A stretch of 64,000 nt of DNA from Escherichia phage p000v, in the sequence record NC_055781.1; one strand, 5' to 3'. Below, piece after piece: positions 24,047 to 42,033 of the stretch. The notes beneath the pieces were generated by a model that saw nothing but the letters and a program-made list of their open reading frames with translations, had not been told where the DNA came from and did not search any database. How positions within the stretch are numbered: position 1 is the first letter of the stretch; each line of letters starts with the position of its first letter. The translations under genes were made by a program, and so were the position numbers.

Positions 24047-24068
24047 AGGCCTAAGTATAGGCCTATTT
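24047..24068 (+). terminator. terminator-like hairpin
   Basis: AGGCCT-aagtat-AGGCCT hairpin followed by ATTT. Confidence 0.45.
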
Positions 24069-24222
24069 ACATTTAAATAAAATGGGAACAACCTGGACCT
24101 CATGATTCTATGAGGGATTCCCGCCAACCTGTAATAAGGTCGAGCCCAAGTGCGGTAATGGGTAAATACAGAAATGGACAATTCATGCGCCACGGAATGG
24201 CCCAAACCTTAAGAGAAATAAT

Positions 24223-24762
24223 ATGAGAACATTTTTAACTGGACCTTATCTATCCCTGATGAATGCTTTTACACACCATTCTGATGCTAGAGTAGAAGAA
24301 ATTTGTAAGAACGGTTATATCCCACCGTTTGAAGACGTACTCAAGCAGTACTGTACACTTCGTTTAGACGGCGGCCGACAATCAGGTAAATCAATTGCTG
24401 TGACTAACTTTGCTGCTAATTGGCTGTATGATGGTGGAACAGTTATTGTTCTTTCTAATACTTCAGCTTATGCTAAAATTTCTGCTGGCAACATTGAAAA
24501 AGAATTTTCTCGTTATTCTAGCGACGATATTCGATTCCGTTTATTTACTGATTCTGTCCGTAGTTTTATTGGCAATGAAGGTTCTAAATTCCGTGGATTA
24601 ACGCTTTCTCGTATTCTGTACATAATTGACGAGCCTATTAAAGCTCCTGATATGGATAAGATTTACGACATACATATTAAAACAGTCCAACACTGTTGCA
24701 AAAGCAAATATTGCAACGGCGGTAATGCTCGTCCTCAATTTTTTGTGATTGGAATGCAATGA
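24223..24762 (+). CDS. P-loop NTPase-like protein
   Basis: Walker A-like GGRQSGKS and Walker B-like LYIIDE; 179 aa. Confidence 0.6.
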   Translation: MRTFLTGPYLSLMNAFTHHSDARVEEICKNGYIPPFEDVLKQYCTLRLDGGRQSGKSIAVTNFAANWLYDGGTVIVLSNTSAYAKISAGNIEKEFSRYSSDDIRFRLFTDSVRSFIGNEGSKFRGLTLSRILYIIDEPIKAPDMDKIYDIHIKTVQHCCKSKYCNGGNARPQFFVIGMQ

Positions 24763-25067
24763 TGACCACTATTGAAGTTTTTGAGTATTGTTATAACAGC
24801 TCAGTATGCAATAAAAGGGCTCTTGTAGAAAATTACGAGATTTACCATTTTAAACCTAAACGATATCGTTTGACTAAAGGTCCGTTCGCAGGGCAGCAGG
24901 TTCTTTGTACTGCTCCTAATGCACGACTGATGACTAGTATTCCGCATTTCAAAATGGAATTTATTGATGGACCATTTAAGGGATTAATCACTCAAAGTTT
25001 AATGGCGTTTAATTCTGACCCATTTTTGATTAAAGAAAAAACTTGGATAAATTTATTTTCTAATTGA
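24759..25067 (+). CDS. hypothetical protein
   Basis: 102-aa ORF overlapping upstream stop. Confidence 0.55.
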   Translation: MMTTIEVFEYCYNSSVCNKRALVENYEIYHFKPKRYRLTKGPFAGQQVLCTAPNARLMTSIPHFKMEFIDGPFKGLITQSLMAFNSDPFLIKEKTWINLFSN

Positions 25068-25073
25068 GGTTAT

Positions 25074-25436
25074 ATGAAAGCATATCAAATTCTTGAAGGT
25101 GTACATAAAGGCACTATTTATTTTGAAGACGGTACTCAAGCCCGGATTATTGTCTCTAAGACTTTTAAAGAAGACACTATTGTAGACCCTGAAATTTTCT
25201 ACGGTTTGAATGCCCGTGAAATTGAAATTGAACATCAACCTAAAGTTAAAATTGAAGGTGGTCAACATTTGAACGTTAACGTTCTGCGTCGTGAAACTCT
25301 GGAAGATGCAGTTAAGCATCCGGAAAAATATCCGCAGCTGACCATCCGTGTATCCGGTTATGCAGTTCGCTTTAACTCTCTGACTCCAGAACAGCAACGC
25401 GACGTTATCGCTCGTACCTTTACTGAGAGCCTATAA
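25074..25436 (+). CDS. grcA: autonomous glycyl radical cofactor (GrcA/YfiD-like)
   Basis: C-terminal 60 residues ([59 protein letters not shown]) match E. coli GrcA/PflB glycyl-radical tail as recalled. Confidence 0.9.
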
Positions 25437-25660
25437 TGGCTAAATTGATTATAGAAGGGTCTGAAGATGTTTTAAAATGTTTTGCCGCCTGGTTTAGTTG
25501 CTCAGGCGAGCAATCATTCATTGAAGCATTTAGAATGGGTGATATTACTGGAAGCTATCCGACAACTGATATCACTGTACGTGGATATGGTATTAATGAG
25601 CCTATCCAATTGGTCGAATATGACCTTGCCACTGATGAGGAAATTCCTTATGTCGATTGA
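25436..25660 (+). CDS. hypothetical protein
   Basis: 74-aa ORF, ATGA-coupled to grcA. Confidence 0.5.
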   Translation: MAKLIIEGSEDVLKCFAAWFSCSGEQSFIEAFRMGDITGSYPTTDITVRGYGINEPIQLVEYDLATDEEIPYVD

Positions 25661-39278: not shown

Positions 39279-39752
39279 ATGTTATTATCTGGCAAATTAT
39301 ACAAAGAAGAAAAACAAAAATTTTATGATGCACAGAACGGTAAGTGTCCTATTTGCCACCGTGAATTAGACCCTGATGTTCAAGGTAACCATCTTGACCA
39401 CGACCACGAGTTAAACGGGCCAAAAGCCGGTAGAGTTCGTGGATTACTCTGTAATCTGTGCAACGCAGCAGAAGGCCAAATGAAGCATAAGTTCAACCGT
39501 TCTGGTCTTAAAGGTCAAAACGTTGATTACCTCGAATGGCTTGAAGCTCTTCTTGCTTATTTGAAACAAGATTATTCTGATAATAATATCCATCCTAATT
39601 TTGTTCCAGACAAAACTAAAGAGTTCTCAAGACTAGGTAAAGAGGAAATGATGGCTGAGATGCTTCAAAGAGGATTTGAATATAATGAATCTGATACTAA
39701 AACACAATTAATAGCTTCATTCAAAAAGCAGCTTAGAAAGAGTTTAAAATGA
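39279..39752 (+). CDS. 49: recombination endonuclease VII (gp49)
   Basis: MLLSGKLYKEEKQKFYDAQNGKCPICHREL...; colinear with T4 endo VII. Confidence 0.95.
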   Translation: MLLSGKLYKEEKQKFYDAQNGKCPICHRELDPDVQGNHLDHDHELNGPKAGRVRGLLCNLCNAAEGQMKHKFNRSGLKGQNVDYLEWLEALLAYLKQDYSDNNIHPNFVPDKTKEFSRLGKEEMMAEMLQRGFEYNESDTKTQLIASFKKQLRKSLK

Positions 39753-41566
39753 AAATTGAAAAAGAAATTGAAGGATTAATTTATAAAACTAATAAAGATC
39801 TTTTGAACGAGAATGCTAATAAAGATTCTCGTGTTTTTCCAACTCAACGGGACCTTATGGCTGGTATTGTGTCTAAGCACATTGCCAAAAATATGGTCCC
39901 GTCTTTTATTATGAATGCGCATGAAAGTGGAATTATCCACATGCATGATATTGATTATTCTCCTGCTCTTCCGTTTACTAATTGTTGTTTAGTCGATTTA
40001 AAGGGGATGCTTGAGAACGGATTTAAATTAGGCAATGCTCAAATTGAAACGCCTAAATCGATTGGTGTTGCTACTGCAATTATGGCACAAATTACTGCAC
40101 AAGTTGCTTCACATCAGTATGGCGGAACTACATTTGCAAATGTCGATAAAGTTCTTTCTCCTTATGTTAAACGTACATACGCTAAACATGTTGAAGATGC
40201 AGAAAAATGGCAAATCGCTGATGCGTTGAATTATGCTCAATCTAAAACAGAAAAAGACGTATACGATGCATTCCAAGCTTATGAATATGAAGTAAATACT
40301 CTCTTTAGTTCAAACGGACAAACGCCTTTTGTAACAATTACATTTGGTACGGGAACCGATTGGACTGAACGAATGATTCAGAAGGCAATTCTGAAAAATC
40401 GGATTAAAGGTCTTGGTCGTGATGGGATAACTCCTATTTTTCCTAAACTTGTTATGTTTGTTGAAGAAGGTGTTAATCTTTATAAAGATGATCCAAACTA
40501 TGATATTAAACAACTTGCGTTAGAATGTGCAAGCAAAAGAATGTATCCTGACATTATTTCGGTTAAGAATAATAAAGCTATTACCGGTTCTTCAGTTCCT
40601 GTTTCTCCAATGGGTTGCCGTAGTTTCTTGAGCGTATGGAAAGATTCAACTGGAAATGAAATTCTTGACGGTCGTAATAATCTCGGTGTTGTAACACTGA
40701 ATCTTCCTCGCATCGCATTAGATTCTTATATTGGAACACAGTTCAATGAACAGAAATTTGTTGAATTATTCAATGAACGAATGGATTTATGTTTTGAAGC
40801 TTTGATGTGTAGAATTAGTTCCTTAAAAGGAGTTAAAGCGACTGTTGCTCCTATTCTTTACCAAGAAGGTGCATTCGGGGTTCGTCTTAAACCTGATGAC
40901 GATATAATTGAGTTATTTAAAAACGGTAGAAGTTCAGTGTCTTTAGGATACATCGGTATTCATGAATTGAATATTCTTGTTGGTCGTGATATTGGACAAG
41001 AAATTTTAACTAAAATGAATGCTCATCTTAAACAGTGGACTGAAAGAACTGGTTTTGCTTTTAGTTTGTATTCTACTCCTGCTGAAAACCTTTGTTATCG
41101 CTTCTGTAAACTCGATACAGAAAAATATGGAAGTGTAAAAGATGTTACCGATAAAGGCTGGTACACTAACAGTTTCCACGTTTCAGTAGAAGAAAATATT
41201 ACTCCGTTTGAAAAGATTTCTCGTGAAGCGCCATATCATTTCATTGCGACAGGTGGTCACATTTCTTATGTTGAACTTCCAGATATGAAAAACAATTTAA
41301 AGGGACTTGAGGCCGTCTGGGATTATGCTGCACAACATTTAGATTATTTTGGTGTTAATATGCCAGTGGATAAATGTTTTACATGTGGAAGTACCCATGA
41401 AATGACTCCTACTGAAAACGGATTTGTTTGTTCAGTTTGCGGAGAAACTGATCCTAAAAAGATGAACACCATAAGAAGAACATGCGGTTATTTGGGAAAT
41501 CCGAACGAACGCGGATTTAATCTCGGTAAAAATAAAGAAATCATGCATAGGGTTAAACACCAATGA
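39749..41566 (+). CDS. nrdD: anaerobic ribonucleoside-triphosphate reductase NrdD
   Basis: 605 aa; C-terminal glycyl radical motif RRTCGYLGN; uninterrupted ORF. Confidence 0.93.
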   Translation: MKIEKEIEGLIYKTNKDLLNENANKDSRVFPTQRDLMAGIVSKHIAKNMVPSFIMNAHESGIIHMHDIDYSPALPFTNCCLVDLKGMLENGFKLGNAQIETPKSIGVATAIMAQITAQVASHQYGGTTFANVDKVLSPYVKRTYAKHVEDAEKWQIADALNYAQSKTEKDVYDAFQAYEYEVNTLFSSNGQTPFVTITFGTGTDWTERMIQKAILKNRIKGLGRDGITPIFPKLVMFVEEGVNLYKDDPNYDIKQLALECASKRMYPDIISVKNNKAITGSSVPVSPMGCRSFLSVWKDSTGNEILDGRNNLGVVTLNLPRIALDSYIGTQFNEQKFVELFNERMDLCFEALMCRISSLKGVKATVAPILYQEGAFGVRLKPDDDIIELFKNGRSSVSLGYIGIHELNILVGRDIGQEILTKMNAHLKQWTERTGFAFSLYSTPAENLCYRFCKLDTEKYGSVKDVTDKGWYTNSFHVSVEENITPFEKISREAPYHFIATGGHISYVELPDMKNNLKGLEAVWDYAAQHLDYFGVNMPVDKCFTCGSTHEMTPTENGFVCSVCGETDPKKMNTIRRTCGYLGNPNERGFNLGKNKEIMHRVKHQ

Positions 41567-42033
41567 ATTATGATAGATTTTATCCTTGCGATTTTGTGAA
41601 TGGCCCGGGATGCAGGGTCGTTCTTTTCGTTACGGGTTGTTTGCATAAATGCGAAGGGTGTTATAATAAATCAACATGGAATGCTAGAAATGGTATTCCA
41701 TTCACTGGTGAAACACTAGAACAATTAATTGAATGTTTGAATAATGATTATATAGAAGGATTAACTATAACCGGAGGTGACCCTCTCTATCCTGATAACC
41801 GAGATGTTATTCATTGCATTGCTCAAACAGTAAAAAATCTTTATCCCAATAAAAGCATTTGGTTGTGGACAGGATATAAGTTTGAAGATATTAAACAACT
41901 AGAAATGCTTAAATATGTTGATGTTATTATTGATGGGAAGTATGAGAAAAATCTTCCGACTAAAAAGCTGTGGCGAGGATCAGATAATCAGCGACTTTGG
42001 TCAAATACCGATGGGGTGTGGAAACATGATTAA
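41563..42033 (+). CDS. nrdG: anaerobic ribonucleotide reductase activating protein NrdG
   Basis: Radical SAM CxxxCxxC (CLHKCEGCYN); follows nrdD with overlap. Confidence 0.9.
   Translation: MNYDRFYPCDFVNGPGCRVVLFVTGCLHKCEGCYNKSTWNARNGIPFTGETLEQLIECLNNDYIEGLTITGGDPLYPDNRDVIHCIAQTVKNLYPNKSIWLWTGYKFEDIKQLEMLKYVDVIIDGKYEKNLPTKKLWRGSDNQRLWSNTDGVWKHD

Follow-up and report, generated by a model that had tools for sequence, protein, structure and literature searches.

The vs.6 gene of Escherichia phage p000v is a mosaic of a phage-lineage half and a host-type glycyl-radical domain

According to PMC8683613, which draws on Wagner et al. 2001, only two spare parts for pyruvate formate-lyase (PFL) have been validated biochemically, YfiD of E. 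coli and Y06I of T4. Oxygen cleaves PFL at its radical glycine, G734 (PMC8683613). The PFL-activating enzyme (PFL-AE) places a glycyl radical on the spare part, and the spare part then forms a complex with the cleaved PFL and restores its activity (PMC8683613, citing Wagner et al. 2001). Residues 1-60 of YfiD are disordered, yet needed to bind cleaved PFL and for efficient activation, and residues 61-127 form the structured module (PMC8683613). The gene of the phage protein, vs.6, was reported to be conserved in 6 of 6 T4-like genomes (PMC1524935). Here we describe vs.6 of Escherichia phage p000v (NC_055781.1), located at 25074-25436 on the + strand of a stretch of 64,000 nucleotides (nt), hereafter the window, in which all coordinates are given. 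Indeed, we found that this gene is a mosaic with both breakpoints inside the gene, and that the exchange with a host is visible in its DNA.

The p000v gene consists of a phage-lineage N-terminal half (amino acids 1-60; 25074-25253, + strand), a host-derived patch with the pattern of gene conversion that covers codons E61 to T117, the structured glycyl-radical domain (25254-25424, + strand), and a 3' tail of E118, S119, L120 and the stop codon TAA with phage-type synonymous states (25425-25436, + strand). The patch is identical to grcA of E. coli K-12 at 166 of 171 nt, and the five differences are all synonymous. Within a core of 117 nt (25272-25388, + strand) codon alignment leaves a single difference from K-12, CGT for CGC at R73, and CGT is also the state in other aligned Escherichia, Citrobacter, Salmonella and Klebsiella alleles. 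When the last 180 nt were aligned with the host genes, as the initial annotation had proposed, they differed from K-12 grcA at 7 positions, all synonymous (173/180), from pflB at 43 and from tdcE at 48; the two latter genes were ruled out as donors by these counts. T4 differs from K-12 grcA at 4 of these 180 positions (176/180), and over the patch its identity to K-12 is 169/171, with 168-170/171 in IMG/VR relatives. E. coli grcA itself differs over these 180 nt from another Escherichia species at 3 positions, from Citrobacter at 14 (166 identities), from Klebsiella at 25 (155 identities) and from Salmonella at 30 (150 identities).

The synonymous sites give the same picture. Nei-Gojobori estimates of synonymous (dS) and nonsynonymous (dN) divergence over codons 61-117 were dS 0.126 and dN 0 between p000v and K-12, and dS 0.024 and dN 0.008 between T4 and K-12. 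Over the same stretch E. coli and Salmonella are separated by dS 1.24 and dN 0.028, E. coli and Citrobacter by dS 0.42, E. coli and Klebsiella by dS 0.84, and RB43-like phages, which served as a control, from E. coli by dS 1.41 and dN 0. Because the host alleles evolve normally over this stretch, the identity of the patch is specific to Escherichia and does not reflect general constraint. The N-terminal half compared with E. coli grcA has a saturated dS (about 2.9) and dN 0.80. On these synonymous sites the donor is a chromosomal Escherichia grcA allele.

Both edges of the patch can be placed by codon alignment. Host-like identity starts at codon E61 (GAA, 25254) and ends at T117 (ACT, 25424). 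The codons just before E61 (CAT CAA CCT AAA GTT AAA ATT) have states common to other phage lineages. The last three codons read GAG AGC CTA in p000v and GAA AGC CTG in K-12, and the GAG/AGT/CTA states at this tail are common to T-even relatives and to RB43/KP15-like phages; because these codons keep phage-type states, the 3' breakpoint lies inside the gene. A maximum chi-squared scan of informative sites, in which the parents were E. coli and, in turn, one of three phage outgroups, delimited with 500 permutations a host-like segment at about 25253-25427 with all three outgroups (p<=0.002, the floor for 500 permutations). For p000v, 25-33 host-like and 1-2 phage-like sites fall inside the segment and 10-26 host-like and 47-60 phage-like sites outside it; for p000v and T4 together the counts were 25-35 and 0-2 inside, and 7-26 and 47-60 outside.

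Base composition also sets the patch apart, since its guanine-plus-cytosine (GC) content is 0.474 compared with 0.333 in the N-terminal half (0.217 at third codon positions, which is phage-typical) and 0.371 in the whole window, placing it in the top 0.4% of 171-nt windows. Moreover, a megablast search of the window against 5,426 complete E. coli genomes returned 25252-25444 as the sole match, found in all 5,426 genomes at 95-99% identity (best 97.7% over 175 nt). A megablast search with Salmonella grcA for a Salmonella-type patch in phages gave nothing above 83.8%.

At the protein level, residues 61-120 of p000v (EGGQHLNV...TFTESL) equal residues 68-127 of E. coli K-12 GrcA at 60 of 60 positions, and over the same 60 codons PflB differs at 12 amino acids and TdcE at 13; the initial annotation had called this tail essentially identical to GrcA/PflB, which is exact for GrcA and approximate for PflB. 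It had also described the N-terminal half as diverged, and this half indeed shares only 13 of 40 identities with GrcA, although it is homologous to GrcA residues 28-67 (amino acids 1-60 against GrcA 1-67, BLASTP E=7e-6). Because its N-terminal half is homologous to that of GrcA, vs.6 as a whole has a grcA-like gene as its ancestor, and an origin in the 3' end of pflB is excluded. Taken together, we consider it very likely that the p000v gene is a vs.6/Y06I ortholog, a spare-part gene made mosaic by host-to-phage gene conversion of its radical domain.

The patch is not private to p000v and is common to several hundred coliphages. K-12 grcA matched 631 phage records at 95-99%, including T4, RB69 and phages labelled Shigella or Yersinia, and every match ran from query position 200 onward. 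Homologs in Karamvirus-like, RB43/KP15-like, T5-like and jumbo phages had no host-identical patch, their best identity to any host allele in our set being at most 148/171. The initial annotation had suggested that the exchange was recent, and this holds only in the sense of after the split of Escherichia from Citrobacter and Salmonella; it is not recent for the p000v isolate. Between T4 and p000v, nucleotide identity is 96.6% in the vs.6 patch, the highest in the region compared, 88.9% in the vs.6 N-terminal half, 74% in vs.5, 85.5% in vs.7 and 67-86% in most other nearby genes. Further, dS between T4 and Mosigvirus is 0.39 in the N-terminal half and 0.05-0.10 in the patch (Fisher p=0.002-0.023, on small counts), which hints at later re-homogenisation against E. 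coli or at spread of the patch from phage to phage.

A related phage-type N-terminal half was found in vs.6 of Klebsiella Jiaodaviruses, joined to patches of other origin. The patch of KPV15 has a GC content of 0.57 and matches a host-type allele recovered from metagenome contigs at 166/171. A donor search among 80 loci of GTDB species representatives, which did not include K. pneumoniae, gave at best 155/171; the K. pneumoniae-type allele was found by a degenerate-pattern scan of metagenome contigs and then in a labelled record of a plasmid collection, and it is identical at 384/384 to grcA of that record, labelled K. pneumoniae (NZ_CP093490.1). This patch type occurs at 95-99% in 106 phage records, always at query positions 202-369/374, and almost all carriers among the matches listed are Klebsiella phages. 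ATCCa, phiKp_22, pzk-kv6-1 and the metagenomic contig L175 carry a different patch from a second host allele; among labelled records, a Raoultella genome comes nearest to that allele. L175 shares its phage flanks with the K. pneumoniae-type contig L180, and the two interiors are each 100% identical to a different chromosomal allele over long runs (about 150 nt, as judged by eye). Nispero has a third host allele and a 3' breakpoint further downstream; K. aerogenes was considered as its patch type and did not match by eye, ungapped counts being meaningless because grcA of the K. aerogenes record LR134122.1 has a one-base insertion. Among seven Jiaodavirus vs.6 genes, 8 of 180 sites vary in the N-terminal half and 19 of 171 in the patch, the reverse of what protein constraint predicts; a count over the 220 nt before these genes was set aside because indels had probably shifted it. 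These data indicate that host-to-phage gene conversion has recurred in the Jiaodaviruses, independently of the coliphages, with K. pneumoniae and two or more further host alleles as donors. RB43/KP15-like homologs (contigs L098-L104) have no recent host patch and about 84-86% nucleotide identity to any host allele. Residues 77 and 81 in these phages follow the host type, E77/K81 in RB43-like phages as in E. coli and L77/E81 in KP15-like phages as in Klebsiella/Salmonella GrcA, which suggests old conversions or selection for host matching.

On its 93% identity to Y06I and the 100% identity of its radical domain to GrcA, the p000v protein is predicted to be a PFL spare part activated by PFL-AE. 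The glycyl-radical motif RVSGYAV (amino acids 92-98) lies at 25347-25367 on the + strand; its radical glycine is G95, encoded at 25356-25358, which corresponds to G734 of PflB. When oxygen has cleaved host PFL, the host activase PflA would put a new radical on G95, and the C-terminal domain of the phage protein would dock into cleaved PflB, so that conversion of pyruvate to acetyl-CoA and formate could be restored during infection. The anaerobic ribonucleotide reductase genes nrdD (39749-41566) and nrdG (41563-42033) lie 14 kb from vs.6. Class III ribonucleotide reductases use formate as reductant, and restored PFL could plausibly feed formate to phage NrdD/NrdG; PFL kept alive in micro-oxic conditions would thus serve energy metabolism and phage deoxyribonucleotide synthesis. 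The conversion patch corresponds almost exactly to the structured module of YfiD, and the phage-specific half to its disordered targeting half.

The comparisons show an old phage-lineage grcA homolog in which gene conversion from the chromosomal grcA of an Escherichia host replaced about 171 bp, those of the structured radical domain, with both crossovers in conserved blocks at the two ends of that domain. Host DNA is broken up during T-even infection and recombination is frequent in these phages, and degraded host fragments could invade the homologous phage gene by way of the T4 recombination machinery (UvsX). A grcA fragment would pair with vs.6 only across the conserved codons of the radical domain, and crossovers would therefore be confined to the end blocks and the boundaries would recur. 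The host version may have been retained by selection for an exact fit to PflB/PflA, or simply by a high rate of events.

A bolder proposal is that vs.6 is a recurrent conversion hotspot, in which T-even phages overwrite the radical domain with grcA of their current enterobacterial host and keep it by selection for a match to PflB/PflA. We put this forward tentatively and judge it rather more doubtful than probable. If true, the patch would be an adaptive host-matching device and a datable record of past hosts, and nature would thereby supply direct evidence of recombination between T4-type phages and fragments of the host chromosome, despite destruction of host DNA and modified cytosine. Several points weigh against our main interpretation. 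The link from PFL through formate to NrdD was drawn from gene content and textbook biochemistry only, recombination of host fragments by UvsX is a conjectured route, and retention of the patch may be adaptive or neutral. The protein scores 158.4 bits against TIGR04365, the NCBIfam equivalog model of GrcA, which is under the curated cut-off of 170 because the N-terminal half is diverged, so that it falls short of an equivalog assignment (E=9e-47, amino acids 18-120 on profile positions 23-126). The shared 5' edge in the 631 coliphage records fits a single event, and the coliphage patch may go back to one ancestral conversion or to repeated ones. Finally, tracking of the current host is imperfect, because phages labelled Yersinia, Hafnia, Pseudomonas or Salmonella carry patches of E. 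coli or K. pneumoniae type. The Yersinia phage fPS-90 has an E. coli-type patch (98.4% to K-12 grcA), and the Salmonella phage PSE-D1 (L257) has a K. pneumoniae-type patch, so that neither carries the allele of its listed host; such patches may point to another host, past or alternative. Two further phages group with the coliphages on indirect comparison, the Pseudomonas phage PsgM02F by 91.9% identity to the p000v gene and the Hafnia phage IsaacDaniel by scores to the Klebsiella allele that equal those of the coliphages.

The strongest competitor holds that the coliphage patch goes back to one old conversion in the ancestor of Tequatrovirus and Mosigvirus and spread vertically and by recombination between phages, with no ongoing exchange with E. 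coli. Besides the single 5' alignment edge at query position 200, the phage-type last three codons are common to the coliphages, differences from K-12 are scattered singletons, and p000v and PhAPEC2 differ at 6 synonymous sites in the patch and 2 in the N-terminal half, as expected for a GC-rich insert decaying toward phage composition. However, the patch has 4-8 fold less synonymous divergence between T4 and Mosigvirus than the N-terminal half has (p=0.002-0.023), repeated conversions are clear in the sister Jiaodavirus lineage, and a shared 5' edge is also expected of independent events because homology starts there. In our judgement this history is finely balanced and falls just short of probable.

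Without any exchange, extreme purifying selection on the C-terminal half for PflB active-site fit and PflA recognition might have held it constant while the disordered N-terminal half drifted. The last 60 amino acids of GrcA are indeed conserved at 56-60 of 60 across the tabulated host genera, which range from Escherichia to Haemophilus, and even the distant Erwinia, Serratia, Pantoea and Edwardsiella reach 60/60; RB43-like phages keep 60/60 of the E. coli tail at only 150 of 180 nt; and the patch boundary coincides with the boundary between the disordered and structured parts of YfiD (PMC8683613). Since selection alone can hold an amino-acid sequence, protein-level identity is no proof of exchange, and, with 56-60/60 in the tabulated hosts and 60/60 in RB43-like phages at 83% nucleotide identity, we discarded it as evidence. 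The exchange with an enterobacterial host that the initial annotation had drawn from this identity therefore stands on the synonymous sites and internal breakpoints and not on the argument offered. The annotation had further staked it on a tail identity above that of other T4-like phages, which p000v does not have (T4 59/60, many relatives 60/60) and which is the wrong test. Selection on the protein, in turn, cannot give synonymous-site identity to the allele of one genus: against E. coli the patch has a dS of only 0.02-0.13, whereas the same codons give 1.24 between E. coli and Salmonella and 1.41 between RB43-like phages and E. coli, and Klebsiella phages instead match Klebsiella-specific synonymous variants. 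This synonymous-site comparison already refutes purifying selection as the only cause, and we hold it to be very improbable.

Recent capture of the whole gene from E. coli, followed by very fast divergence of the N-terminal half, would agree with the homology of the entire protein to GrcA, N-terminal half included, and with the quick evolution of disordered regions. It is hardly tenable, given that the N-terminal half is saturated against E. coli (dS about 2.9) while patch dS is 0.13, that the N-terminal half groups with Karamvirus-like, Jiaodavirus and RB43-like phages, all without an E. coli patch, that the three codons after the patch are phage-type, and that Jiaodaviruses with virtually identical N-terminal halves carry different host patches.

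The transfer ran from host to phage, as seen from composition and phylogeny. Host grcA alleles adjoin ung in a chromosomal context, and E. coli compared with Citrobacter, Klebsiella and Salmonella gives dS 0.42-1.24 over the patch and 0.53-0.87 over the N-terminal half. Patch GC is 0.47-0.50 in coliphages and 0.55-0.57 in Klebsiella phages, within AT-rich phage genes. Deviations of the patch from K-12 across nine T-even sequences are mostly C to T or G to A, a tally that includes the R73 codon (CGC/CGT), itself polymorphic among host alleles. The reverse, in which bacteria copied the C-terminal segment of grcA from phages, is the least credible of all, because, although two-way exchange between host and phage was reported for cyanophage psbA (PMC1484495), the host alleles diverge in step across both halves of grcA, the patch has host-like GC inside AT-rich phage genes, phage deviations go mostly from G/C to A/T, and the allele is present in all 5,426 E. 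coli genomes.

Both the gene and its biochemical role are already known, textbook T4 biology and already annotated. vs.6 of p000v is an intact ATG-started open reading frame (ORF) of 120 codons plus stop, on the + strand at 25074-25436 (ORF list), and by T4 Vs.6 identity, synteny and Pfam it is the ortholog of vs.6, encoding a phage autonomous glycyl-radical cofactor of GrcA/YfiD/Y06I type. Its protein is identical to T4 Vs.6 (Y06I, NP_049730) at 112 of 120 amino acids (93%) and equal in length. Its neighbours are homologs of vs.7 and vs.5, the same order as in T4 and PhAPEC2 by annotation and gene-by-gene blastn, in a conserved synteny block vs.8-vs.7-vs.6-vs.5-vs.4-regB, and the RefSeq label of vs.6 in PhAPEC2 and T4 is "autonomous glycyl radical cofactor GrcA". 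The genome region is that of a Mosigvirus-like (RB69-type) T-even phage, and among about 1,500 phage homologs vs.6 DNA identity is 98.1% to PHB12, 97.0% to HX01 and 96.7% to PhAPEC2. The reading of 25074-25436 as a GrcA-like glycyl-radical cofactor, and of the T4 protein as a spare part for oxygen-damaged PFL, which the initial annotation had given as known, was borne out by the Gly_radical domain (PF01228, amino acids 60-101, E=2e-18, 67.2 bits, cut-off 22.2), by the YfiD nuclear magnetic resonance structure 6OWR (E=2e-42, query 21-120 aligned) and by this syntenic vs.6/Y06I orthology. Like the GrcA family (IPR011140), the protein has a C-terminal Gly_radical domain with the RVxG[FWY] motif and an N-terminal half homologous to that of GrcA.

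PFL chains in the PDB align with the p000v protein only at PflB residues 696-759 (E=3e-26), and with the PflB/TdcE model TIGR01255 it scores 89.6 bits, where the cut-off is 994, over the last 66 profile positions only. A full-length PflB/TdcE (about 760 amino acids, with the Cys418/Cys419 active site) was ruled out by this score and span; the protein is a stand-alone one of about 14 kDa with no PFL catalytic barrel, its ORF bounded by vs.7 and vs.5. The label "pyruvate formate-lyase" on phage homologs in GenBank is an over-annotation.

A Shine-Dalgarno-like GAGG (25066-25069, + strand), read from the sequence, ends 4 nt before the ATG and overlaps the vs.7 stop codon TGA at 25065-25067, and the vs.6 stop overlaps the start of the vs.5 homolog as TAATG (vs.5 ATG at 25436). 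A promoter scan around the gene found no sigma-70-like promoter immediately upstream on the + strand, and vs.6 is therefore probably transcribed from a longer early or middle transcript. In the promoter and terminator scan near vs.6, promoter-like matches were fewer than in shuffled sequence and nothing was attributable to vs.6.

Some further features of the window were observed. A perfect hairpin with a 7-bp stem, AGGCCTAAGTATAGGCCT, lies at 24047-24064 directly after the ipIII homolog and is terminator-like on both strands. T4 vs.8 (660 nt) aligns to 653 nt at 24110-24762, and the p000v ORF covers only 24223-24762 (179 amino acids); an ORF of 38 amino acids in another frame (24110-24226) precedes it, and PhAPEC2 annotates the same short vs.8, so that the short form looks like a lineage-wide truncation or frameshift. 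p000v nrdD has no intron, the two exon pieces of T4 nrdD aligning to it end to end (40284|40287), and the homing-endonuclease gene mobC, which lies between nrdG and nrdD in T4, is absent in p000v. Its nrdD is 92-95% identical to that of T4, compared with 67-86% for most neighbouring genes.

Several database records also need care. IMG/VR "viral" contigs (L156-L165 and L116) hold full-length host-type pflB or, in L116, a Yersinia-like host-type grcA of 127 amino acids, and these are probably host flanks or misclassified contigs and not phage genes. The metagenome contigs L240 and L173 have long PFL-type ORFs (787 and 617 amino acids as read) whose C-termini (...NSLTPEQQ(R/Q)DVI.RTFT...) are more GrcA-like than PflB-like, a hint that grcA and pflB may exchange this C-terminal segment within bacterial genomes too. 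Records filed as plasmids were chromosome-sized or chromosome-derived, namely LR134122.1 (K. aerogenes NCTC10006 "plasmid 2", L258), CP125156.1 and NZ_CP093490.1. In LR134122.1 the one-base insertion in grcA falls in a run of A and truncates the annotated coding sequence; it is likely a sequencing error.

What the nucleotide pattern adds goes beyond the existing annotation, in that in T4, the best-studied lytic phage, and in p000v an older phage homolog encloses 171 bp copied, with clean boundaries, from a host chromosomal gene. The vs.6 patch is compact and open to experiment, which makes it a suitable case in which to measure how genes pass from a host chromosome into a virulent phage. It also suggests that the glycyl-radical domain must closely match the host PFL system, since residues E77/K81 and L77/E81 follow the host even without recent exchange. 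As a short marker of the genus in which a T-even lineage recently replicated, the patch could help host assignment.

Compared with the known systems, T4 Vs.6 shares with p000v both the E. coli-type patch (in T4 at 169/171 nt to K-12) and the phage-type ends; eight substitutions separate the two proteins, seven in the N-terminal half and one, R73H in T4, in the patch, where p000v keeps the host residue. E. coli GrcA (YfiD) likewise stands alone at about 14 kDa and joins a disordered N-terminal half to a structured glycyl-radical C-terminal half, whereas the p000v N-terminal half is 7 amino acids shorter and about 33% identical over 40 amino acids, and the p000v gene lies in the early-gene cluster of a lytic phage and not beside ung as E. 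coli grcA does. The C-terminal domain of PflB/TdcE shares its fold segment and the RVSGYAV radical loop with the p000v protein, but the two depart from each other at 12-13 of 60 amino acids and at 43-48 of 180 nt, and p000v has no catalytic barrel. The GrcA-like genes of T5-like, RB43/KP15-like, Karamvirus-like and jumbo phages share the layout of a variable N-terminal half of about 60 amino acids and a conserved radical domain of 60. No report of vs.6/grcA recombination between host and phage was found in the literature searched, which left most subscription journals outside. The closest parallel is psbA/psbD of cyanophages, a case of host-derived metabolic genes in T4-like phages with GC-patchy mosaicism and segments exchanged with host alleles (Zeidner 2005; Sullivan 2006, PMC1484495). 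The vs.6 mosaic is a new instance of known intragenic recombination between host and phage, and it differs from psbA/psbD in that it occurs in the classical enterobacterial T-even phages, the donor species can be named and match at 100% over long interior runs, and the patch is one defined structural domain with its breakpoints in fixed conserved blocks.

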